A stretch of DNA of 32,000 nt from Polynucleobacter necessarius (GTDB taxonomy: Bacteria; Pseudomonadota; Gammaproteobacteria; Burkholderiales; Burkholderiaceae): positions 817,207 through 849,206 of the forward strand of contig NZ_LT606950.1 in assembly GCF_900095195.1 (NCBI RefSeq). Reading direction: 5' to 3'. The stretch's first letter is position 1. The number at the start of each line of letters is the position of its first letter. Shown here piece after piece: positions 11,036 to 26,715 of this stretch. The position numbers were made by a program, and so were the translations under genes. The notes beneath the pieces are model-generated. The model saw only the letters and a program-made list of their open reading frames with translations. It was not told the DNA's origin and ran no database searches.

Positions 11036-13503
11036 ATGAAATCCACGGTTTTATCTCGACTCGTCCTCGCCCCAATTCAATGGCTCCGCAAAATTCGGTG
11101 GTTTCGACTCGTCTATACCCCTTTGTTAGCGATTGTTTTATTTACCGCTGTCATGGGCATTATTTTGGCACCCTCCACCTCCAGGAGAAGGGTCAACAAG
11201 AAGCATTAGCATTTGCCAAACAGCGTATTCAACTGCGCTTTGCAAATAACTCAGAATCACTCAATACACTCAATCGCGAAATTGCTGCGAGTAGCGAGGA
11301 TCCAAAACTCAAACAATTGGTTCGCGAGCAATCGAATGATCTGGTTCAAAACAACCAAGAGATCATTAAGGTAGTTTAGTTGGATGCAAATAGTTCACGT
11401 GTGTGGTCTGTTCCCACCAATATCCAAAAGTCAGAGTGGGATGCTCAGCTCGAAAAAAATCCTGTGGTGGCGGAAAGCCTCGCTACTACCATTGAGCTTA
11501 GTCGCATCACTGGCAGAACTGCATTTAGTAAATTTGTGATCTTGAATATGCCTGGGGAACCAAGCAAGGAAAAGAGAACACTTTTTTGGCAAGTCGCATC
11601 CAACATTGTGGGTGGTGAAGCGATTGGCTTCTTAGCTGCTCTCTACACCACACAGGGCATCTTGGATATTATTCCCGGGGAACTCACAGCCCTTTATCGT
11701 TTCACACTCCTGACGGACGATGATCGAGTCCTATCCATCTCATCCGATCGGGATACACCTAAAAGAGCCTTTAAGTTTAGATATGGGCGTACTGAGTCCG
11801 AATCTTGTTCTACGCATTGATACTTATCCTCCGTCTACCAATCATTTCGGATGTTGATTGGCGTTGTACTGGGTTTATCAGCATTTGTGATTTGGAGCCT
11901 TTGGTCTGTTTTGAAGCAGATGCAAGTTCGCCAAGAAGCAGAAGCAAGTCTGTGAAACGAAACGAATTTTCGTAATGCCATGGAAAATTCGACGCCAGTC
12001 GGTATTCGCGCACACGATATGCAAAAAAGAATTACCTATGTCAATCGCGCATTTTGTGAAATGACGGGCTGGTCTGCTAATGAACTCACGGGACTAGAGC
12101 CCCCTTTTCCATTTTGGCCAGACTCTCGACGCGATGAAATAGTGGACAAGATGAATCGCGCCCTGCGTTCGGAAATTAGCCTCAAAAACGGTATTGAAGG
12201 CGTCATTATGCGGCGCGATGGCACCTTAATTCAGATGCGTACCTTCCCCCCTAATTAATGAGAAAGGAAAGCAAACGGGATGGGTCACTTCATTAATTGA
12301 TATTTCTGAACCGAAAAAGATTCGTGAAGAATTAGCCGCATTCCAAGAGCGCTTTATTACCGTTCTTAATGGCTTGGATGCAGCGGTGTCAGTAGTCGAT
12401 CTGGAAAATGATCAACTCCTCTTTGCTAACCGCTTCTACCGCGAAAACTTTGGTGATGACTCTAAGGGACACTCCTTGCTATCTGGCGACACCAATAACT
12501 TAAAAACGCTTCATGAAGTGGCGGAAGATCTGCAAGAGTCTCCCCCTGGAATTCCGACTTCATTGCTGTATCAGGAGTCCGAATCTGAGGAAGTGCAGTT
12601 AAGCGAAAGTAACAATCGTTGGTATGAAGTGCGGCGTCGCTTTATTCCCTGGGTTGACGGTCGCCTAGCCCAGTTGCTAATTGCTACCGACATTACTGCT
12701 CGAAAAGAAGCGGACGAATTATCGCGCCAGCAAGAAGAACGTATGCAGTTTACGAGTCGTCTCACCACCATGGGTGAAATGGCATCCCCTCTCGCTCATG
12801 AATTAAATCAACCACTCTCGGCAATTTCCAATTACTGCATGGGAGTTGCCAAACGATTGGAAGACAATCTTGATCCCACCGTCTCTAAGGATATCTTGCC
12901 TGCACTGGAAAAGACCTCTGAGCAAGCGCATCGTGCTGGCACCATCATTCAGCGCATTCGTAGCTTTGTTAAACGCAGCGGACCACAACGCAAATCCAGC
13001 GGCATTAATGTCAACGCTGCAGTTGGGCTAGTAGAAGTTGAGGCGCATCGTCATCGTCTCAGTATTAGCTCCAGTATTGGCGAAAACTTGCCATTAGTGG
13101 ATATTGATCCCGTATTGATTCTGCAGGTTTTAGTCAATCTCCTCAAAAATGCCCTCGACAGTACGCGGGAAGCCTACCCTCTCTCCTCTCGTTGGTCAGC
13201 CCCACCCGTCAATATCAGCGCCGATCTGGATACGAGCACTTTTCCGGCAATGTACGGGGTTCAGGTCACGGATGGCGGGTCCGGAATCCCCGAATCCGTG
13301 CTGGAGCGCATGTTTGAGCCGTTTTTTAGTACAAAATCCGGTGGTATGGGTATGGACTCAATATCTGCCGATCCATCATCGCATCCCATCATGGCCGGCT
13401 TTGGGCGGTAAACCGCATGGACTCAGAACATACCAAGCTGGTTGGCTGCACCATTACAATATTGCTACCCCTAGTTTCCCTAGAAGCTAGCAACAATACT
13501 TAA
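11036..13503 (+). pseudogene. PAS-domain sensor histidine kinase, heavily disrupted
   Basis: ATG 11036 gives a TM N-terminus (LVYTPLLAIVLFTAVMGIIL). Lesions in order: frameshift near 11167-11171; in-frame TAG 11377-11379; in-frame TGA 11818-11820; in-frame TGA 11953-11955; +1 shift in C6 12246-12251; shift at 13354-13355. The PAS domain (STPVGIRAHDMQKRITYVNRAFCEMTGW), H-box (LAHELNQPL), N-box (LLKNALDS) and G-boxes (DGGSGIP, STKSGGMGMG) are all recognisable. The restored C-terminus GLNICRSIIASHHGRLWAVN... ends at TAA 13501-13503. Confidence 0.85.
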
Positions 13504-13539: not shown

Positions 13540-14133
13540 ATGAACTTGAGCGCAACTACTAAACCAAACCAGGCCGAAGTTGTCTACGTAGTAGATGATG
13601 ATGAAGCCGTTCGTGACTCGCTCACTTGGTTGTTAGAGAGCAATGGCTATGTTGTGCGCTGTCATGCAAGCACAGAACGCTTCTTGCAATCTTTGCAAAG
13701 TACCGATAAATCGACAATTTCGTGCACCATCCTGGATGTGCGTATGCCTGACATGTCTGGCCTGGAATTGCAAGAGCGGCTCATCAGCGAAAACTTACCA
13801 ATGCCAGTCGCATTCATCACAGGTCACGGCGATGTCTCGATGGCCGTTTCGACCATGAAACGCGGTGCAGTGGATTTCATTGAAAAACCATTTAAAGAGA
13901 ATGATCTTTGCGGTTTAGTCGATCGCATGTTAGCCAAAGAGCGCGTGGATTACTCCCAAGCGAGCCAGCGCAAAATTACGCAAAGCCTATTAGGCAAGTT
14001 AACTGGGCGTGAGCGCCAAGTTCTGGAACGCATCGTGGCTGGACGCTTAAACAAGCAAATTTATGGAAAAGCTCAACGTCAATACCGTTCGGACTTGCTG
14101 CGTCTTGCCTTGTCTGACCCACAACCGAATTAA
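13540..14133 (+). pseudogene. FixJ/LuxR-type response regulator with damaged HTH
   Basis: The receiver domain is intact (DDDEAV, LDVRMPDMSG, TGHGD, KPF). In the output domain, LTGRERQVLERIVAGRLNKQI is followed by a missing stretch at about 14060-14062. Then MEKLNVNTV is encoded out of frame (14062-14088), and the original frame resumes at SDLLRLAL. The ORF stays open only because the two indels compensate. Confidence 0.7.
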
Positions 14134-17161: not shown

Positions 17162-17768
17162 TCAATCCTTCCAAGTGGGATGTTTTTCCATAATGGATTG
17201 AAATAATGCGGATTCCAGATGCTCTTGCAACCATTGATGCGTGCGAGGTATCGGTAGGCGCATAAATTGCTCAGGGCACACCATCGAGAATTGTCTAATA
17301 AACAGAAAGATGGCGATATCAACCCATGACTGTGCATTCAAGCAACTACTAGATCAATACAAGTATCCCAATCACTACCCTGAAATCAAACAGGAGACGG
17401 TTTTGCAGGAAGCAAGCGAGCTGATGCTCAAACCCATGGAGGTAGCGCTCCAACAGCATCGCTATCTCTTGGGTAATGGTCCATCATTGATTGCAATCCA
17501 ATTCTGGGTTTGGTCTGATCCACCTGATTCAACCTTCAGGGTCGGCTTGCTCTAGGGCCCAATGCACGATATCCAAACTTTGATCGATCACCCGGTCGCC
17601 CACACACAGCACTGGCACTGTTCCTTTAGGAGAAACGAGCAACATGGATTTTGGCTTTTCGCGCAAAGCAATTTCACGATGCTCGACTGCTATGCCAGCA
17701 TACCTTAGAGCCATTCGCGCTCGCATGGCATAGGGACTTCTTCGATACGAATACAAAATGGGCATCAT
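17162..17768 (-). pseudogene. glutathione S-transferase-like protein, disrupted by a frameshift and an internal inversion
   Basis: The N-terminal thioredoxin-like domain (MMPILYSYRRSPYAMRARMALRYAGI..SPKGTVPVL) lies on the minus strand at 17768-17529. The C-terminal part (WVDIAIFLFIRQF...HQWLQEHLESALFQSIMEKHPTWKD*) lies on the minus strand at 17327-17162. The middle 52 codons are encoded on the plus strand. Confidence 0.85.
17328..17485 (+). other. 158-bp inverted segment of the GST-like gene
   Basis: The plus strand reads DCAFKQLLDQYKYPNHYPEIKQETVLQEASELMLKPMEVALQQHRYLLGNGPS. Reverse-complementing exactly 17328-17485 joins ...QNWIAIN to DCAFKQ... and ...GNGPS to WVDIAIF... in one frame. The breakpoints carry the inverted 4-mer ATGA/TCAT. 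Confidence 0.85.
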
Positions 17769-17795: not shown

Positions 17796-18644
17796 CTAGG
17801 ATTTTTTGATTGTGGCAATAACCGGAGCGTGATCCGAGGGTTGCTCCCAAGTTCTCGGCTCTTTATCCACCACACTCGCCTGACATTTTTCTTTCAAGGC
17901 ATTACTCAAGAGAATATGGTCGATGCGCAAGCCTGCATTTCTGCGAAAACCCATCATCCGATAGTCCCACCAACTATACGTTTTAGGCGCTTGCTCAAAC
18001 ATGCGAAAAGAATCGTGCAGACCTAAGTTGGTAAGCGCCTGAAACGCATTACGCTCGGGTGGCGATACCAAATTTTGCCCTTCCCATGCCTTCGGATCAT
18101 GCACGTCTTCGTCCGTTGGTGCGATATTGAAATCTCCTAGCAATGCCAAGCGCTGATTCTGATCCAACTCCCCTGCCAACCAGGATTGCAATGAATTGAG
18201 CCAATTTAGCTTGTACGCAAATTTATCGCTATCGGGCGATTGACCATTCGGAAAGTAAGCCGAGACCAATCGAATGGGTTGTGTACCAGCAAATGGAATG
18301 GTTGCCGCCAAAATACGCTGCTGTTCATCTTCAAAATTGGGGATATTGCGCGTGGGATTGAGGAACGTGGTTGCTGCATCAGATGCTATCGATGCCAAAG
18401 CTGCTTTGCGCACAATAATAGCCACACTGTTATACGTTTTTTGGCCAGCTGCCAGACTGACGTAACCAGCAGCCTCTAATTCTGCATGGGGGTACTTATC
18501 ATCTGTGAGCTTGAGCTCTTGCAAACACAGCCCATCAACTGCTTGCTGCTTTTTTTCTTGATCTTGTAACCAACGAAGTACGTGTGGAAGGCGAACCTTT
18601 AAAGAGTTCACATTCCACGCGGCAATTCGGATTGAATCAGTCAT
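17796..18644 (-). CDS. xthA: exodeoxyribonuclease III
   Basis: The ORF track extends to 18725, but the homologous start is MTDSIRIAAWNVNSL at ATG 18644. Catalytic residues are present (WNVNS, LQE, GDFNIAP, WWDYR, SDHAPV). The start overlaps the ntrC stop as ATGACTGA. Confidence 0.9.
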   Translation of the reverse strand: MTDSIRIAAWNVNSLKVRLPHVLRWLQDQEKKQQAVDGLCLQELKLTDDKYPHAELEAAGYVSLAAGQKTYNSVAIIVRKAALASIASDAATTFLNPTRNIPNFEDEQQRILAATIPFAGTQPIRLVSAYFPNGQSPDSDKFAYKLNWLNSLQSWLAGELDQNQRLALLGDFNIAPTDEDVHDPKAWEGQNLVSPPERNAFQALTNLGLHDSFRMFEQAPKTYSWWDYRMMGFRRNAGLRIDHILLSNALKEKCQASVVDKEPRTWEQPSDHAPVIATIKKS

Positions 18645-20085
18645 CGATCCCAAGTTCCTGCAATTTTCGGGTGATCGTATTGCGTCCAATGCCAAGGCGT
18701 TGAGCTGTTTCAACACAACGGCCACGAGTGACCTCTAAAGCGGCTTGCAATACCGCTTTCTCAAAACGAGAGCAAAGAGCATCGTAAACCTCTTTGTCTC
18801 CATCTTGCAGCATCTTGATTGCTAACCGGCTCAGACCATTCTCCCAATCTCCAGATGGCGACTTTCCTGATGTGTGCATGGAAGCAGACTCACCTTGCTG
18901 CGCTGCGGACAGTGCACTTGCTTCAGCAACGATATCCGTTGGCAGATCACCCACCCCTATGACGTTAGTTGGGGTCATCACAATCAACCAATGGCACAAG
19001 TTTCCCAACTGCCGCACATTCCCTGGGAATGGCATAGCGCTCATTTCCTTGAGTACCTCATCCGAGAGTTTCTTGGGCTCAACCCCCATCGCTTTGGCGC
19101 AGGAAAGCATAAAGTGTTTCGCTAACACGGGAATGTCTTCACTGCGCTCACGCAATGATGGCATACGCAGGCGAATCACATTTAAGCGATGCATTAAATC
19201 TTCGCGGAACAATCCTGCCGCTACACGTTGCTCAAGATTTTGATGGGTGGATGCAATTACACGCACATTAACCTTGATGGGGTCTTGTCCGCCGAGGCGA
19301 TAGAAGTGCCCATCAGTTAATACGCGCAGTAAACGCGTTTGCAAATCAAAAGGCAAATCGGCAATCTCACCGATAAAGAGTGTGCCGCCATCCGCCTGCT
19401 CTAAACGACCACGACGTAGCGTTTGCGCACCCGGAAATGCGCCACGCTCATGACCAAATAATTCCGATTCCAGCAAGTCCTTAGGTACCGCAGAGGTGCT
19501 CAGCGATACAAAAGGTCCTTTTACACGAGGGCTATGCTTATGCAACGCATGCGCTACCAACTCTTTACCAACCCCAGACTCACCCGTAATCAGAACCGTT
19601 GTGTGCGATTGTGCAAGGCGACCAATAGCGCGAAAGATTTCTTGCATCGCCGGCGCTTTTCCAATAATTTCAGTCGCCTCAGGTCGAATGCCGCCTAACT
19701 CCTTCTTATCCGTTTCGCTACGAATGCCCTGCTCTACCGCACGACGTATGAGCTCAACCGCTTTCTCAGTATCAAAGGGTTTGGTTAGATATTCAAATGC
19801 GCCGCCCTGGAAAGACGATACTGCGGAATCCAAATCCGAGAATGCTGTCATGATGATGACTGGTAAATTGGGATGACTTGCTTTCACATGTTGCAATAAA
19901 TCCAAACCATTACCGCGCGGCATCCGAATATCGGAAATCAAGACCTGGGGGGGTTCTTTTTCCAGACTATTCAGTACATCATTTGGATTCGAAAAGCTTT
20001 TATGGGGAATATTATCCCGCGCTAACGCTTGTTCTAATACCCAACGAATAGATTGGTCATCATCGACGATCCAAATTGGCTTCAT
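18637..20085 (-). CDS. ntrC: nitrogen regulation protein NR(I), sigma54-dependent response regulator (ORF intact, key motifs atypical)
   Basis: 482 aa with receiver domain (SDIRMP), AAA+ domain (GESGVGKE, FREDLMHRLNV, PGNVRQL) and Fis-type HTH. The loop reads GAFPGA instead of GAFTGA, and Walker B reads LFIGE instead of LFLDE. Confidence 0.9.
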   Translation of the reverse strand: MKPIWIVDDDQSIRWVLEQALARDNIPHKSFSNPNDVLNSLEKEPPQVLISDIRMPRGNGLDLLQHVKASHPNLPVIIMTAFSDLDSAVSSFQGGAFEYLTKPFDTEKAVELIRRAVEQGIRSETDKKELGGIRPEATEIIGKAPAMQEIFRAIGRLAQSHTTVLITGESGVGKELVAHALHKHSPRVKGPFVSLSTSAVPKDLLESELFGHERGAFPGAQTLRRGRLEQADGGTLFIGEIADLPFDLQTRLLRVLTDGHFYRLGGQDPIKVNVRVIASTHQNLEQRVAAGLFREDLMHRLNVIRLRMPSLRERSEDIPVLAKHFMLSCAKAMGVEPKKLSDEVLKEMSAMPFPGNVRQLGNLCHWLIVMTPTNVIGVGDLPTDIVAEASALSAAQQGESASMHTSGKSPSGDWENGLSRLAIKMLQDGDKEVYDALCSRFEKAVLQAALEVTRGRCVETAQRLGIGRNTITRKLQELGIDD

Positions 20086-21215
20086 GATGCTTTCTCCTGC
20101 CTACGGTATGGAATTTGAATATGAAAATCGGTACGACCAGGGCGGCTTTCGCACGCTATAAAGCCCCGGTGCCGCTGGACAAAGGTCTGCGCAAGAGTCA
20201 GGCTAAGACCACTACCCCCTTCGCGACCCGAGACGAGTGGAAAGAAGATGCGTTCAATAATTTCTTCTGGTATGCCTGGGCCGTTATCAATCACGTGTAG
20301 ATCCATTGCCAACTTGTACCGCTTCTTGGCAATAGTTACGGATCGAGCGACTCGGGTCTTCAATTCGATTTTCGCTGTGCCAGCATGAATTTCTTCCGCA
20401 AGCGCGTGGGCGGCGTTATGCACAGTATTTAATACTGCCTGAATCAATTGCTCACGATCACCCATCACCTCGGGCAAGCTCGTGTCGTAGTTACGAATGA
20501 TTCGAAGGCCTTTGGGAAACTCTGCCAGCACCAAACTGCGCACGCGCTCAAGGGCTTCATGCACATTGAATGACTCCATCACATGCGCCTTGCGGTGTGG
20601 TGCCAATAGCCTATCAACTAAGGTCTGTAGTCGATCAGACTCTTTAATAATGACCTGCGTGTACTCACGCAGACCTTTTTCAGATAATTCAAATTCGAGC
20701 AACTGCGCCGCCCCCCGAATTCCTCCCAGAGGATTTTTAATTTCGTGAGCTAAATTGCGCAATACTTGTTTGTTCGCCTCAACCTGTTGTGTAACCCGCT
20801 CATCGCGCTCGCTACGCAACTGCTGATCAATCGGAAACCATTCCACCATGATCAAGGCTGGATCTTCTAAAGCGGCAATCACAACGTGTGCCGGAATGGA
20901 ATCTTGATGAATACTTCCCGGCAATGAATGCAACACCATCTCTTGGCGCTGCGCCGAGACATTACTATGCTTCACCTCAGTGATCATGGCATTTAGTGCG
21001 GTGTTATCACCAAATAAATCGTGCACAGATTGACCCTCAAGCGCTTTACGTGACAGATCCAATGCTGACTCTGCAGCTGGGTTCACATAAACCAATTGTT
21101 GGTTCTCCGCCTCAAAAACCACGATGGCATTGGGCATCTGATCGAACAATGTCGGAAAAAAAGGAGCAGCCGAAGCTGCTCCCTTGAACAAATTGCGCAA
21201 CAAACCTGCGCTCAA
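20082..21215 (-). CDS. ntrB: nitrogen regulation sensor kinase NR(II)
   Basis: 377 aa. TTG start, preceded by aaggagag. H-box HEIKNPLGGIRGAAQLL and G1 box DNGPGIP are present. ATGA overlap with ntrC. Confidence 0.9.
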   Translation of the reverse strand: MSAGLLRNLFKGAASAAPFFPTLFDQMPNAIVVFEAENQQLVYVNPAAESALDLSRKALEGQSVHDLFGDNTALNAMITEVKHSNVSAQRQEMVLHSLPGSIHQDSIPAHVVIAALEDPALIMVEWFPIDQQLRSERDERVTQQVEANKQVLRNLAHEIKNPLGGIRGAAQLLEFELSEKGLREYTQVIIKESDRLQTLVDRLLAPHRKAHVMESFNVHEALERVRSLVLAEFPKGLRIIRNYDTSLPEVMGDREQLIQAVLNTVHNAAHALAEEIHAGTAKIELKTRVARSVTIAKKRYKLAMDLHVIDNGPGIPEEIIERIFFPLVSGREGGSGLSLTLAQTFVQRHRGFIACESRPGRTDFHIQIPYRRQEKAS

Positions 21216-21229
21216 GTTCTCTCCTTCGC

Positions 21230-22645
21230 TTACAGGGAGTAGTACATATCAAATTCAACTGGATGAGTTGTCATACGGAAACGTGTGACATCCTCACTCT
21301 TCAACGCGATGTAAGCGTCGAGCATTGAATTTGTAAATACACCGCCACGAGTCAAGAACTCACGATCTTTATCCAAAGCTTCCAATGCTTGATCCAAGCT
21401 ATGGCAAACGGTTGGGATCTTTGCATCTTCTTCTGGTGGCAAGTCATACAAGTTCTTGTCAGCAACTTCGCCTGGGTGAATCTTGTTCTGAACACCGTCC
21501 AAACCAGCCATCAACAAGGCAGAGAATGCCAAGTATGGGTTCGCCAATGGATCTGGGAAGCGAGTTTCGATACGACGACCTTTTGGGTTCGAAACGTGTG
21601 GAATACGAATCGAAGCAGAACGGTTACGTGCAGAGTAAGCCAACTTCACAGGAGCCTCAAAGCCCGGAACCAAACGCTTGTAGGAGTTTGTACCTGGGTT
21701 TGTAATTGCATTCAATGCACGTGCGTGCTTGATGATGCCGCCGATATAGTAGAGAGCGAACTCTGACAAACCTGCATAACCATTGCCTGCAAACAAGTTC
21801 TCGCCATTCTTCCAAACGGATTGGTGAACGTGCATACCAGAACCATTGTCGCCAACTACTGGCTTAGGCATAAAGGTTGCAGTCTTACCGTAAGCATGTG
21901 CTACGTTCTGAATCACGTATTTTTGCCAAATAGTCCAGTCAGCGCGCTGTACCAAAGTGCTGAACTTGGTGCCCAATTCGTTTTGGCCTTGACCGGCAAC
22001 TTCATGGTGATGTACTTCAACTGGAATGCCCAATGATTCAAGAATCAAGCACATCTCAGAACGCATATCTTGGAATGTATCGACTGGAGCGACTGGGAAG
22101 TAACCACCCTTCTTACCTGGACGGTGGCCAGTGTTGCCGCCTTCGATTTCGGCGCCAGAAGACCATGGAGCTTCTTCAGAATCAATCTTCACGAAGCAGC
22201 CTTGCATATCAGCACCCCAACAAACGCCGTCAAATACAAAGAACTCTGGCTCTGGACCAAAGTAAGCAGCATCGCCCAAACCGGAGCTCTTCAAATACGC
22301 TTCAGCACATTTTGCAATAGAGCGTGGATCGCGATCGTAACCTTTGCCATCAGATGGCTCGATCACATCACAGGTCAGAACCAATGTTGGCTCTTCATAG
22401 AATGGGTCAATATAAGCAGCTGTTGGATCTGGCATCAACAACATGTCAGAAGCTTCAATGCCTTTCCAACCAGCGATAGAAGAACCGTCAAATGCATGAC
22501 CGCTCTCAAATTTGTCTTCGTCAAAAGCAGAAATCGGTACTGTTGTGTGTTGCTCTTTACCCTTTGTATCTACAAAGCGGAAATCAACGAAAGTACATTC
22601 TTTCTCTTTAACTAACTTCATCACATCAGCGACGGTCTTCGTCAT
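21230..22645 (-). CDS. glnA: glutamine synthetase type I
   Basis: The homologous start [24 protein letters not shown] is at ATG 22645, behind RBS gaggagag; the ORF track extends to 22714. The adenylylation-site context [10 protein letters not shown] is present. Confidence 0.95.
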
Positions 22646-22709
22646 GCAACTCTCCTCTATAAACAAAACTCGGAATTCAAACGTAAGGCATACACCCTTG
22701 TTTATTCCA

Positions 22710-22725
22710 GGCATTCAACATACCG
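22710..22725 (-). promoter_or_regulatory. weak candidate sigma54 (-24/-12) promoter for glnA
   Basis: The minus strand reads cGGtatgttgaaTGCc, giving GG-N10-GC spacing. It is only a partial match to TGGCAC-N5-TTGC. It lies about 65-80 nt upstream of the glnA ATG. Confidence 0.3.
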
Positions 22726-22774
22726 ATTGGATGTATGTAATTTACTGAAACAAACAACGGGGAACACTCATTAT

Positions 22775-22791
22775 TGCACCAATTAAGTGCT
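22775..22791. promoter_or_regulatory. NtrC-type enhancer site (proximal)
   Basis: TGCACCAATTAAGTGCT contains GCAC-N7-GTGC, the core of the NtrC consensus TGCACC-N5-GGTGCA. Confidence 0.5.
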
Positions 22792-22826: not shown

Positions 22827-22843
22827 TGCACCGTTTTAGTGCC
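22827..22843. promoter_or_regulatory. NtrC-type enhancer site (distal)
   Basis: TGCACCGTTTTAGTGCC contains GCAC-N7-GTGC. Its centre is 52 bp (about 5 helical turns) from the proximal site. Confidence 0.5.
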
Positions 22844-22851
22844 TTACAGAG

Positions 22852-23717
22852 CTAGACAATATCGTGAATTTCATAGCCCAGTTCTTGAGTGCCCGTTCTG
22901 AGGGCAATCCACGCACCTTCAAGGAGATTGGCGTTGCCTTTGATACCTAATTCAATATGGCGCTGGGCGTATACCCCGCCTTTGCTGGAGTCTCCTACTG
23001 AGGGCAGACTTAAATACCTTAACCCCCAGAAAGCTGGCCTCAATCCGCTCCATCAAGGGGGTCAAAGTGGATTCAATGCCCTTGGGAACAATGAAGCTTT
23101 GTTCAGCCCAATTTTCTCGATGAAAGAGATCTTGGTAATGCGTGTCCAGGCACCATGCCATCATCGGTGCAGCCATCACTAGGAAACCCGGCAAAAAGTG
23201 ATGTTCTCGAATCCGAAATCCTGGAATTTGGTTATAGGGGTTCAGAATGATTTCGCTACCAAGCGGAAACTCACCCATCTTGAAGCGCTGTTGATTCTCT
23301 GGAGTGCTTAAATCTGACTTGATTGGATCGCCCTCCGCCATCGACTGAATGCGCCCAGCAATCAACTCTCCCGCGGTTGGATGCAATTCGGTTTTTGTGC
23401 CTAGGGCAAGTGCCGCACATTGGCGAGTGTGATCATCCGGTGTAGCACCAATCCCACCCAGTACTAAACACCACATCGCCACTAGCAGAACTGTCTTTCA
23501 GGGTTGCGGTAATTTGCTCAGGATCATCTGCAACATATTTAGCCCAAGATAGACTCAAGCCACGCTCATTGAGCAACTCAATCAGCTTACTCAGATGTTT
23601 ATCTTGGCGACGACCTGACAAAATCTCATCACCAATCACAATCAAACCAAATCGTCTAGATGGGTAGCCATCAGACTCGGGAGCATCCACTGCGACTGTT
23701 CTCACTACATCATTCAT
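22852..23717 (-). pseudogene. CinA-like molybdopterin-binding (MoCF-biosynthesis domain) protein, two frameshifts
   Basis: Three fragments read consecutively: MNDVV..GLIVIGDEILSGRRQDKH..GDVVFSTG | GIGATPDDHTRQCAALALG...FLGVKV | SLPSVGDSSKGGVYAQRHIELGIKG..HDIV*. The shifts are at sense-strand GGG (plus 23457-23459) and around 23011-23018. Confidence 0.8.
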
Positions 23718-23721
23718 TTGA

Positions 23722-24591
23722 TTAACCATGATTTGGAAGTTCGGAGTCCGCAACACGCGCATGGACCGCGAGGGATTTCTCCAACTCTTCTTGTCTAAGA
23801 GCCTGTAAGGCATCTAGCAAAAAGTGGCTGAACCAGAGCGCTGCAAACACAAAGATTAGGGAGTAAATCCAGAGAGCAACAAAGCTCACGATCGGAAACA
23901 ATACCAATGCCAGCGCAGAGGTTGCCCAGAAAAACGTCGGTACTGCACCCAACATACCCGCAACCACGCCCATCGTCAGCAAAGGCCAACGATACTTCTC
24001 CAGTAATAAGTCACGCTCTTCTACGCTGGCATGTTTGGCCAATACGTCATAGGACATCAGTCGCATCGTCAGCCAGCCCCACAATAATGGCGGAAGAACG
24101 GCGACCAATGGTGGCACCCACCACACGGGCAACGTCAGCAGCACCAAGACTAGGCAAATCAGCGCAGACCATAAGGTGTAAACCAGACTTCCAAAAAAGC
24201 CGCTGCCTCGCTTGCATTCCAATCCCTGATACGCAGGTTGACGTGCAACTACATTCACAATAGCGGGCACGGTAGAGAAAGCAACGAATACCAGAAGGCT
24301 AATTGTGATGAGCGGAATGATCAGCATTACAAAAAATAGCGGAGCAATCCATGCTCGGGCGTTATCAAAGCCTGCCCAGATCAATCCCTCCTGAGTCCAG
24401 CTAGTGAAGATCGACGTCGTGAGAAAAATACTGAGGGCCTCTAATGCAGGAGTCCATGTTAACCAAATCAAGACGCCCCATAACACCGCGACAATCAAAA
24501 AGGGTCGCAGACTCAACCACAGCATGCGGGGATGCATGGTTCCTACTAGGGCAAGCCCAAACGATTTAAATACTTGTTGCAACCCAACCAT
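23722..24591 (-). CDS. EI24/CysZ-like multi-pass membrane protein
   Basis: Open frame with several predicted TM segments. The probable start is ATG 24591, behind gggag; the ORF track starts at TTG 24603. The family assignment comes from overall sequence character only. Confidence 0.55.
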   Translation of the reverse strand: MVGLQQVFKSFGLALVGTMHPRMLWLSLRPFLIVAVLWGVLIWLTWTPALEALSIFLTTSIFTSWTQEGLIWAGFDNARAWIAPLFFVMLIIPLITISLLVFVAFSTVPAIVNVVARQPAYQGLECKRGSGFFGSLVYTLWSALICLVLVLLTLPVWWVPPLVAVLPPLLWGWLTMRLMSYDVLAKHASVEERDLLLEKYRWPLLTMGVVAGMLGAVPTFFWATSALALVLFPIVSFVALWIYSLIFVFAALWFSHFLLDALQALRQEELEKSLAVHARVADSELPNHG

Positions 24592-24635
24592 ATGCACTCC
24601 CAAGACATACCGGGGGTATGTTTATTCTGGATATT

Positions 24636-26715
24636 TTACTTTGGCAATAGCTCTCGTACAGCGTGAACTAGGCCTTGCCATTGCTGCGTAGAGATATTAA
24701 GCAACCTTCTCCACCCATTGTGGCTCAATTTTGGCAATGGTGCGAGCGTACATGCGATTGGTTTCTTGGAGCTCCCCCGCCAGAATCCAAGCACCCGCCT
24801 TTTTACCAATCGTTGAGCCCGGCCAAATAAATGGACGTATTCCTCGAGCGCCCACATAACCGCCAGTTTTACTATTACGATCTTGTGACTTTTCATCTTC
24901 GTCTTTTTTAGCAACATAGCCCAATAGACCAGTGAGTAAAGCCAAGTGAATTTGTTCATAAGTCGCAGGTGTGCCATTCTCTTTCCACCCTTTTTCACCC
25001 AGCATGGTATGCAACTGCCCATGAACATCACGCCACTCTCACAAGCGTCTAGGCGATAAAAATTTACTGCGGCATAAATTTTCGAGCTGACGATTGCTGT
25101 GCTTGTGCTGTAATGCGTCCTGATACCAATCCCAAAGTTTTACAAAACTCAAAAATTCAGAACGCTCATCAGCAAACTGCAGATGCGCTTAATCAGCAGC
25201 TGCGCCCTGATCCATCGGTCACTCACGCGGATCTTGGGTGGCTAATGCGGATGCAATGATGGTGACCTCTCGGAGAGCATTTTGCTCTTTGGCGGCCAGC
25301 AACATCCTTCCTATACGCGGGTCTAGTGGCAAATCCGCTAATTGCTTACCAATCTGCGTGAGCTTAAATGAATGATGAAGCTCTTTCGCATCGGCCACTG
25401 ATGGCGCTTCGTATTCAATAGCACCCAGCTCATCCAATAGTTGCACGCCATCGGCAATTGCCCTGCCGAGTGGTTTATCTATAAATGGAAAGTGCTGAAT
25501 CTGCGGCAAGCGTAATGCACTCATGCGCAGCAAGACGGCTGCTAAAGAGCTACGCAAAATCTCGGGATCAGTAAATCTAGGACGACTTTGAAAATCTGCT
25601 TCGCTATATAGGCGCACACAAATACCATCCGCAACACGACCGCAACGTCCAGCACGTTGATTGGCAGCAGCTTGTGAAATGGGCTCTATCTGGAGTTGCT
25701 TCACCTTATTGCGGTAGGAGTACTGCTTTACTCTAGCCAAGCCACTATCAATCACATAGCGAATGTTGGGAACAGTGAGAGATGTTTCCGCAACGTTGGT
25801 AGTCAAAATAATGCGACGCCCATTACCGGGTGAAAAGACCCGCTCTTGCTCAGCTACCGACTGGCGCGCAAACAAACTAAGCACCTCAGGATGAAGGCGT
25901 TGTTGCAGCACATGGTCTTTACGCAATGCTTCAGCGCAATCCCGAATCTCCCGCTCTCCTGGTAAAAAAACCAGGACATCTCCCGATCCTGCCGAACCTT
26001 CTCGCCAAACCTTCGCGATTTCTTCGGCAACCGCCTCTGGAATTTCCTTAGCAGCCTTGGATTCTTTCTTGCTATCGGGCTCTAGGGGTGCGTAACGCTG
26101 CTCTACTGGAAATAATCTGCCACTTACCTCTATGACGGGGGCCACCTTGCCATTCAGTGCAAAGTGCTCGGCAAAACGTTGGGCGTCAATCGTTGCAGAA
26201 GTAATGATGAGCTTAAGGTCAGGCCTCTTAGGCAGCAGTTGACGCAAGTAACCCAACAAAAAATCAATATTGAGGCTACGTTCGTGCGCTTCGTCGATGA
26301 TGAGAGTGTCATACGCTTTTAATTGGGGATCGCGCTGCGTCTCAGCCAGCAAGATGCCATCGGTCATCAACTTGATGGAAGCGCCTTGAGTCGTTTTGTC
26401 GGCAAAGCGGACTTGATACCCCACATCTTGACCAATTGGCGTGCCCAACTCTTGCGCAATGCGTTTTGCCGGAGCGGTAGCAGCAATACGGCGGGGTTGC
26501 GTGTGGCCAATCAGCTTTCCGCCATTGATCGTCCCGCGACCGAGATCAACACAGATCTTGGGTAGCTGCGTGGTTTTACCGGAACCCGTCTCACCGCACA
26601 CAATGACTACTTGGTGGCTTTGCAAGGCATCTTTGATCAGTGGCCGCTGACCAGAGACTGGCAATTCTTCTGGAAAGCGGATCTCTAAGCGCCGTCCGGT
26701 GTTGGAAGCAGACAC
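24636..26715 (-). pseudogene. hrpA: ATP-dependent RNA helicase HrpA, nonsense-disrupted and 3'-truncated
   Basis: GTG start at 26715. DEAH-box motifs are intact (GETGSGKTTQ, DEAHERS, TSATID, TNVAETSLTV, QRAGRCGR). In-frame TGA 25219-25221, TAA 25189-25191 and TGA 25039-25041 occur in a single continuous frame that continues through ...FIWPGS..ILAGELQETNRMYARTIAKIEPQWVEKVA to TAA 24697-24699. A possible frameshifted remnant runs to about 24636. Nothing corresponding to the C-terminal roughly 500 aa of full-length HrpA is present. Confidence 0.88.

Follow-up and report, generated by a model that had tools for sequence, protein, structure and literature searches.

The locus studied here is the glnA-ntrB-ntrC cluster of Polynucleobacter necessarius. 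It lies on the minus strand of a 32,000-nucleotide (nt) stretch of contig NZ_LT606950.1 (assembly GCF_900095195.1, positions 817,207 to 849,206), and this whole stretch is called the window below. The gene in question, ntrC (glnG), encodes a homolog of the nitrogen regulator NtrC, a bacterial enhancer-binding protein (bEBP), in which three residues of the AAA+ domain differ from those of canonical sigma54-dependent members. The features of the locus are compiled in Table 1.

Table 1. Genes, protein motifs, and leader elements of the glnA-ntrB-ntrC locus (window coordinates; aa, amino acids)
Feature	Position	Strand	Basis
ntrC (glnG) coding sequence, atypical NtrC, 482 aa, intact	18637..20085	minus	Open reading frame listing, TIGR01818, Pfam
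Fis-type HTH_8 DNA-binding domain, aa 440-477	18655..18768	minus	PF02954
Gly361 (E361G), private to the window; GNVRQLEN of the sensor II region is otherwise invariant	19003..19005	minus	1/120 sequences
Walker B TLFIGE, aa 235-240; Gly239 in place of the Mg-ATP Asp, Glu240 kept	19366..19383	minus	DNA read
L1 loop GAFPGA, aa 215-220; Pro218 in place of the sigma54-contacting Thr	19426..19443	minus	DNA read
Ser196 at the glutamate-switch Asn position (PspF Asn64; LNxAA to LSTSA)	19498..19500	minus	Alignment
Walker A GESGVGKE, aa 168-175, Lys174 kept	19561..19584	minus	Alignment
Receiver domain, aa 4-113; Asp52 (phospho-acceptor), Thr80, and Lys102 kept	19747..20076	minus	PF00072, E. coli NtrC alignment
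ntrB (glnL), 377 aa, intact; H-box HEIKNP kept	20082..21215	minus	NF008293, 294 bits
glnA, 471 aa, true start ATG 22645 as in all relatives	21230..22645	minus	Profile match, starts of relatives
CGGTATGTTGAATGCC, window copy of the palindrome (A/G)GGCA-N7-TGCC(T), at the -24/-12 promoter site of outgroups	22710..22725	minus	6/11 consensus positions, GG-N10-GC kept
Proximal palindrome resembling an NtrC box, GCACTTAATTGGTGC; glnA ATG about 138 nt downstream	22776..22790	minus	Pattern match
Distal palindrome resembling an NtrC box, GCACTAAAACGGTGC; distance to the proximal box, 52 bp (about 5 helical turns)	22828..22842	minus	Pattern match

An intact ntrC gene with three atypical AAA+ residues

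The ntrC open reading frame (ORF) consists of 482 codons without interruption and is colinear with that of its relatives (482 versus 483 aa); no frameshift, premature stop, or truncation was found in it. All four Pfam domains of the product, PF00072 (Response_reg), PF00158 (Sigma54_activat), PF25601 (AAA_lid_14), and PF02954 (HTH_8, the helix-turn-helix [HTH] domain), scored above their cut-offs. With TIGR01818, the NtrC equivalog model, the protein reached 626.3 bits (cut-off, 558.6), and with the enteric-specific model NF008176 it stayed slightly under the threshold (603.5 versus 620).

The initial annotation had described GAFPGA, TLFIGEIA, and LSTSAV as noncanonical motifs in an intact gene. 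The minus-strand DNA bears this out, and the three motifs depart from those of all readable outgroups (see below). The codons ...GGC GCA TTT CCG GGT GCG... specify GAFPGA, with the Pro218 codon CCG at 19432-19434, and ...ACA CTC TTT ATC GGT GAG ATT GCC... specify TLFIGEIA, with the Gly239 codon GGT at 19369-19371. LSTSAV is part of the stretch FVSLSTSAV (aa 192-200). When the protein was aligned with E. coli NtrC and PspF, Ser196 corresponded to PspF Asn64, Pro218 to PspF Thr86, and Gly239 to PspF Asp107 and NtrC Asp239. PspF Asn64 pairs with the Walker B Glu in the "glutamate switch," the GAFTGA Thr of the L1 loop contacts sigma54, and the Walker B Asp is the Mg-ATP Asp. Judged by this alignment, the departure from a canonical bEBP affects a third mechanistic residue too (Asn to Ser in LSTSAV) and is larger than first stated.

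In the same alignment, Glu240, Walker A, the arginines of FREDL/RLNV (FREDLMHRLNV), and GNVRQL(G)N are kept. Val172 in Walker A is a rare variant, present in 4 of 120 homologs; the others have Thr or Ala. Measured against a canonical sigma54-dependent bEBP, the window NtrC lacks the GAFTGA Thr, the Walker B hhhhDE, and the glutamate-switch Asn and has the Walker A GxxxxGK, the arginine fingers, and sensor II. It also has what marks an atypical bEBP: an AAA+ domain of the bEBP type whose sigma54-contact motif is defective.

As had been stated, the surroundings of the AAA+ domain look normal: the receiver Asp52, the HTH, the NtrB H-box, and the glnA ORF are all kept. ntrB overlaps ntrC by 4 nt, and its product is 91.5% identical to P. 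wuianus NtrB. The gene order glnA-ntrB-ntrC is the same in the window and in the Polynucleobacter loci. The start codon of glnA is preceded by AGAGGAGA. A longer glnA ORF (start ATG 22714, 494 aa) was rejected as an artifact of the ORF listing; it reads through the conserved leader, and relatives start at the equivalent of 22645.

Distribution of the three residues in Polynucleobacter and outgroups

The homolog set comprised the 120 closest clusters, that is, the window NtrC and 119 others at 84-93% identity. All are from Polynucleobacter where named, and the named free-living members include P. wuianus, P. nymphae, QLW-P1DATA-2, and MWH-Svant-W18. GAFPGA is present in 117 of the 120 and LSTSA in 119, and Ser occupies the glutamate-switch Asn position in every one. 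At the Walker B Asp position, 97% have Gly, as LFLGE[IV].

For comparison with outgroups, 80 NtrC loci at ≤64% identity were obtained from a contig scan that yielded no Polynucleobacter genome. The Thr and Asp motifs were readable in 69 of them (other Burkholderiales, Gammaproteobacteria, and Alphaproteobacteria), and all 69 were canonical. Asn, Thr, and Asp occupied the three positions in all 39 aligned beta- and gammaproteobacterial NtrC orthologs. Representatives at 53-72% identity were canonical in 18 of 19 cases; the 19th had no readable L1 stretch. A search with the closest canonical representative, P0127, matched Rhodoferax and other Comamonadaceae and no deep Polynucleobacter branch. 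In this Comamonadaceae set, 118 of 119 NtrC sequences were canonical, and the 119th was unreadable by pattern. In a search of 1.84 billion representatives, the genus collapsed into one 50% cluster, which is too coarse to place the origin of the variant.

Because the homologs carry the trio while all readable outgroups are canonical, we regard the trio as derived at the genus level. On these alignments, Pro/Gly/Ser is a derived character that the sampled Polynucleobacter clade shares, free-living species included, and no lesion of the window genome. The initial annotation had left it to an alignment of orthologs whether T to P and D to G are lineage specific; they are, with the genus, including its free-living members, as the lineage.

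Among the 107 sequences with readable motifs in the search of 1.84 billion representatives, one departs from the canonical residues at both motifs. This sequence (P0140, from a 3.9-kb contig of a Logan assembly) is an unrelated NtrC-like protein with 49-50% identity. It has changes at the same three positions, Asn to Ser in ISAAL, Thr to Ala in GAFAGA, and Asp to Glu in FFEE, and its Walker A reads GEAGVGKT. This case hints that the three residues may repeatedly be lost together.

Purifying selection on ntrC and decay of neighboring genes

Pairwise ratios of nonsynonymous to synonymous substitution rates (dN/dS) for ntrC were about 0.03, whether free-living strains were paired with each other or with the window; dS was saturated in many pairs (about 1.3 for the nearest relative with DNA, L081), so that these values are imprecise and serve as bounds. 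Positions conserved to ≥97% in the genus (120 clusters) made up 78% of the AAA+ domain, 86% of the receiver, 91% of the HTH, and 17-40% of the linkers. We also considered the 176 sites that are ≥93% conserved in outgroup NtrC. At 165 of them the residue was kept in Polynucleobacter, and only 10 were fixed to another residue (G57R, V150I, A194S, N196S, A198S, I200V, T218P, D239G, M244L, and A279S). Nine of these ten changes fall in the AAA+ domain, the equivalents of PspF N64, T86, and D107 among them. By this pattern, NtrC looks re-purposed rather than broken, because the Walker A Lys, the arginine fingers, sensor II, the lid, Asp52, and the HTH are kept, and the trio that couples hydrolysis to the remodeling of sigma54 is replaced.

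The window NtrC has six substitutions at sites that are invariant in the other 119 clusters (E24D, Q143K, E361G, T368I, A373T, and A460T). In a Tajima relative-rate test, 19 unique changes were counted in the window protein versus 7 in its closest relative (P = 0.02, uncorrected). NtrB showed no such asymmetry (12 versus 19), and the dN excess of the window over free-living strains was similar in glnA, ntrB, and ntrC. This mild extra load of private substitutions is a weak signal, and incipient relaxation of the window ntrC is possible. Against incipient decay, the ntrC ORF survives together with the NtrB kinase, the target glnA, and the NtrC boxes, in a region where several genes are destroyed. 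The cluster with the largest number of private changes at otherwise invariant sites was P0003 (91% identity to the window NtrC), with eight, R23W and R307C among them; this protein may stem from a further lineage that evolves fast and is possibly symbiotic.

The reference for decay was a set of five Polynucleobacter loci, free-living or metagenomic, that are colinear with the window. Compared with these relatives, glnA (95% identity), ntrB (91.5%), ntrC (86.7%), an exonuclease III-family gene (Exo_endo_phos), prlC, and folD are intact in the window. Only fragments are left of hrpA (about 1330 aa in free-living relatives; 24600-26715 in the window), namely, an N-terminal ORF of 498 aa (25219-26715) and some pieces (24700-25326). 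In relatives, hrpA is followed by genes for a YNCE-like beta-propeller protein, a polysaccharide deacetylase, and a fatty-acid hydroxylase; all three are deleted in the window, apart from the last 20 codons of the hydroxylase gene at 24639-24698. Directly upstream of glnA lies a MoCF_biosynth/CinA-like pseudogene (22855-23729; about 290 aa in relatives), which is split over three frames. The glutathione S-transferase gene between the exonuclease III-family gene and prlC (17171-17768) is broken into three fragments, which lie in different frames and, in one case, on the opposite strand. The gene for an 838-aa PAS sensor histidine kinase (11036-13497) is frameshifted into at least four pieces. 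The LuxR-type response regulator next to it (13540-14133) is intact and orphaned by the broken kinase, in contrast to the intact NtrB-NtrC pair. We infer that the window comes from a Polynucleobacter with a reduced genome rich in pseudogenes, as would fit an obligate endosymbiont of ciliates.

The initial annotation had suggested that ntrC may be a cryptic pseudogene, which has lost its function by missense mutation (T to P and D to G) and is decaying. A genome in which hrpA is truncated, three genes are deleted, and the CinA-like, glutathione S-transferase, and PAS kinase genes are broken would be a fitting place for such a gene, and the six private changes at invariant sites, including E361G, as well as the 19 versus 7 unique changes could be seen as its traces. 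However, the flagged residues are common to 117 of the 120 relatives, free-living ones included, the dN/dS value is about 0.03, and the AAA+ domain is conserved. Moreover, the ORF, ntrB, glnA, and both NtrC boxes are intact beside the broken neighbors, NtrB is not accelerated, and the dN excess is alike in all three genes of the cluster. We consider a decaying pseudogene quite unlikely, and the explanation is not supported.

NtrC boxes and a weak -24/-12 element in the glnA leader

The pattern GCAC-N7-GTGC had just two matches in the 32-kb window, both upstream of glnA (138 and 190 nt). Their spacing matches that of enteric NtrC boxes. Both boxes were present in each of the six Polynucleobacter loci that had been retrieved independently and, counting all sources, in 25 distinct leaders; the metagenomic leaders were fetched with the proximal box as the search pattern, and only the other features are independent there. 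Two non-Polynucleobacter metagenome contigs (L094 and L114) have the exact proximal box GCACTTAATTGGTGCAATAATG and canonical sigma54 promoters downstream of it (TGGCATAAAAACTGCG; TGGCACGTTTCATGCA). They share the box yet have canonical promoters; therefore, the box is older than the promoter change.

Outgroup glnA leaders contain a strong TGGCA[CT]-N5-[CT]TGC[AT] element in 33 of 35 loci, 48-230 nt upstream of the gene and mostly with 8-11 of 11 consensus positions. In Polynucleobacter leaders, only AGGCATGTTGAATGCC was found about 80 nt upstream of glnA, with 7 of 11 consensus positions and embedded in the palindrome (A/G)GGCA-N7-TGCC(T). The weak -24/-12 element that the initial annotation had seen upstream of glnA is real; it is the window copy of this genus-wide palindrome, in which two changes are private to the window. 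Across the window, matches to the -24/-12 pattern (TGGCAC-N5-TTGCW) were no more numerous than expected by chance. In one metagenomic leader (L112, contig Ga0114963_10054161), the spacer is 1 nt shorter, by which the palindrome is kept and the GG-N10-GC (-24/-12) spacing is broken. This 1-nt deletion could be real variation or an assembly error.

The approximately 170 nt before the ATG are almost invariant across species with saturated synonymous sites. The leader at 22646-22775 (also in L083-L122) contains two potential hairpins or palindromes, AGGCAT-N5-ATGCCT and CAAGG-N7-CCTTG, the latter with a second ATGCC copy in its loop. Their sequences could represent leader RNA structure or protein-binding sites. 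We read the GGCA-N7-TGCC element as a putative descendant of the ancestral glnAp2 promoter that is now kept for another reason, as a DNA site or a leader hairpin. Covariation is no guide to whether it is an RNA hairpin or a DNA site, given that its stem positions hardly vary. A search of the glnA leader in Rfam gave no match.

Reported absence of sigma54 from Polynucleobacter strains

No rpoN and no second bEBP were found within the 32-kb window, the remainder of which is housekeeping, and the absence of rpoN is taken from the literature. According to Francke et al. 2011 (BMC Genomics 12:385, Additional file 1), P. necessarius STIR1 has 0 sigma54 genes and 0 enhancer-binding proteins (EBPs). 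Janssen et al. 2010 (Table S4) list RpoD and RpoH and no RpoN ortholog for STIR1, with RpoN in every other Burkholderiales genome compared. In Table 2 of Hahn et al. 2016, a "putative sigma-54" is absent from the free-living P. asymbioticus QLW-P1DMWA-1. Sigma factors are not mentioned in Hahn et al. 2012.

The variant itself has been catalogued once before, in a supplementary table and without analysis. Among "inactivated EBPs by small changes," Francke et al. 2011 (Additional file 3) list gi 145589434 of QLW-P1DMWA-1 with "...GAFPGA... GGTLFLGE," T4->P, and "np = not probable." This protein is the ortholog of the window NtrC. The entry is a catalog line only, and Walker B, the glutamate switch, conservation in the genus, selection, and the glnA leader are not covered there.

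A Thr-to-Pro exchange in GAFTGA inactivates Bradyrhizobium japonicum NifA, as cited by Kazakov et al. 2015. The Walker B Asp is described as required for ATP hydrolysis and dispensable for ATP binding (bioRxiv 10.1101/2023.06.06.543975). The initial prediction that this NtrC cannot activate sigma54 promoters is probably right, given the reported absence of rpoN and the inactivated NifA. The reason would be another one than decay.

An NtrC that still works as a sigma54-dependent activator would need Pro218 and Gly239 to be tolerated or compensated, with GGCA-N7-TGCC as a functional, unusual -24/-12 promoter. Such a protein would suit the conservation of GG-N10-GC about 80 nt upstream of the glnA ATG, at the promoter site of the outgroups, as well as the retained Glu240, Walker A, arginine fingers, and sensor II, and some strains, such as MWH-MoK4, have a putative sigma54. 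However, rpoN is reported absent from STIR1 and QLW-P1DMWA-1, though these lineages keep the same NtrC and leader. Thr to Pro inactivates NifA, the Walker B Asp is essential for hydrolysis, and the glutamate-switch Asn is lost too. The short spacer of L112 breaks the strict -24/-12 spacing and keeps the palindrome, and the element has 6-7 of 11 consensus positions versus 8-11 in most outgroups. We regard continued sigma54-dependent activation as very improbable.

A proposed sigma54-independent mode of action

It is likely, in our view, that ntrC encodes a Polynucleobacter-wide, atypical, sigma54-independent NtrC, which regulates a sigma70-family holoenzyme instead. In this analysis we observed the residues, their conservation in the genus, purifying selection, the conserved boxes, and the loss of the canonical -24/-12 promoter; the sigma70 partner, activation as opposed to repression, and ATP binding without hydrolysis are what we infer. 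In the ancestor of the sampled Polynucleobacter clade, Asn, Thr, and the Walker B Asp would have been replaced by Ser, Pro, and Gly, with the rest of the protein under strong purifying selection. NtrB would phosphorylate NtrC at Asp52, and NtrC would then oligomerize upstream of glnA, on the two GCAC-N7-GTGC boxes that stand in tandem 138 and 190 nt from the gene. ATP would probably be bound without being hydrolyzed; Walker A, the arginine fingers, and sensor II would support assembly, and the contact to sigma54 would be gone. As output, a sigma70-family holoenzyme would be regulated at glnA and probably at other nitrogen genes, as described for R. capsulatus NtrC.

Several points weigh against this proposal. 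Nearly all Polynucleobacter leaders have still conserved the GG-N10-GC core at the position of the ancestral promoter. A consensus scan of the glnA leader for sigma70 -35/-10 elements and terminators found none, and manual -35/-10 candidates were unconvincing. The absence of rpoN rests on three publications and two strains (STIR1 and QLW-P1DMWA-1), and strain MWH-MoK4 has a putative sigma54, alongside flagella genes (Hahn et al. 2016, Table 2). The atypical NtrC of Caulobacter is described as still needing its Walker B Asp, the loss of which is thus no general feature of atypical NtrC proteins (bioRxiv 10.1101/2023.06.06.543975). Finally, the evidence on Polynucleobacter NtrC comes from sequences.

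A further possibility, which the initial annotation had raised as a reduction to DNA binding or repression, is that NtrC acts, like Brucella NtrX, only as a DNA-binding repressor or architectural protein under the control of phosphorylation; the AAA+ domain would then be an oligomerization scaffold, and nothing would be activated. In favor of it, the receiver, HTH, and binding sites are all conserved, no sigma70 promoter was recognized downstream of the boxes in the scan, and the NtrC boxes of E. coli overlap glnAp1 and serve in its repression. NtrX is described as an atypical bEBP that acts as a repressor (PMC6158489). However, boxes 138-190 nt upstream of the ATG, followed by a long, near-invariant leader, have the geometry of an upstream activator. 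The conserved Walker A Lys, arginine fingers, and sensor II suggest that nucleotide binding still matters, and the closest functional precedents among NtrC orthologs, those of R. capsulatus and Caulobacter, activate glnA/glnB-type genes. A mere repressor or architectural role appears unlikely to us.

Beyond the favored sigma70-type regulation, we tentatively suggest how it arose, with more doubt than confidence. A sigma54 activator may have been converted independently, by point mutations, to a sigma70-type regulator. The three substitutions (N to S, T to P, and D to G) would have disabled its remodeling engine, with the AAA+ ring kept as an ATP-binding, phosphorylation-controlled assembly module and, in parallel, glnAp2 re-used as a palindrome or leader hairpin. 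If true, this would be a natural route, with a minimum of mutations, that links the two modes of transcription activation in bacteria, in a very abundant freshwater genus; on average, Polynucleobacter accounts for about 20% of freshwater bacterioplankton cells in the account of Hahn et al. 2012. We found no study on nitrogen sensing without sigma54 in Polynucleobacter.

Catalytic-residue oddities in a reduced symbiont genome look like decay; here, they are old, maintained by selection, and shared with free-living relatives. For annotation, this means that a match to a "sigma-54 interaction domain" does not imply sigma54-dependent regulation. Polynucleobacter NtrC would be convenient for back-mutation work (P218T, G239D, and S196N) on the switching of sigma-factor partners.

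Comparison with known NtrC proteins and VpsR

Polynucleobacter NtrC resembles that of E. coli and Salmonella in the operon glnA-ntrB-ntrC, the GCAC-N7-GTGC sites, and the domain order, and it is 52-55% identical to E. coli NtrC. Unlike these proteins and PspF, it has the equivalents of PspF N64, T86, and D107 replaced, and its glnA lacks a canonical glnAp2 promoter.

R. capsulatus NtrC is likewise described as an NtrC ortholog with an NtrB partner, the order receiver-AAA+-HTH, and a defective sigma54-contact loop. Phosphorylation is required for its function and ATP binding without hydrolysis has been reported to be sufficient, which fits the kept Walker A and the lost Walker B Asp of Polynucleobacter. 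Unlike in R. capsulatus NtrC, where the whole L1/GAFTGA segment is described as deleted, the length of the loop is kept in Polynucleobacter and single residues are changed. R. capsulatus retains rpoN for its nif genes, and the surveyed Polynucleobacter strains are reportedly without rpoN. R. capsulatus NtrC activates the sigma70 holoenzyme (Bowman & Kranz 1998, as cited in bioRxiv 10.1101/2023.06.06.543975).

Caulobacter crescentus NtrC, too, is described as an NtrC ortholog that lacks a functional sigma54 loop; expression of glnBA depends on it, and it appears to act at sigma70 promoters. Unlike Polynucleobacter NtrC, it is reported to have an eight-residue deletion in L1 and to keep and require the Walker B Asp235, at which Polynucleobacter has Gly.

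Vibrio cholerae VpsR combines a defective GAFTGA with a nonconsensus Walker B (DE to ND) and is described as activating sigma70 RNA polymerase from a promoter-near site (PMC6158489). The VpsR entry PDB 7v2b was among the matches. Unlike Polynucleobacter NtrC, VpsR is, by the same description, no NtrC ortholog, is controlled by c-di-GMP, acts independently of ATP, and has a biofilm regulon.

The atypical, sigma70-acting bEBP homologs considered here are R. capsulatus NtrC, Caulobacter NtrC, VpsR, TyrR, HupR, PhhR, and NtrX. Atypical regulators derived from bEBPs are thus a class already known, and Polynucleobacter NtrC would be a new, uncharacterized member of it. Among the few sigma54-independent NtrC orthologs, it would be a case that arose by substitution only; the others lost the loop by deletion.

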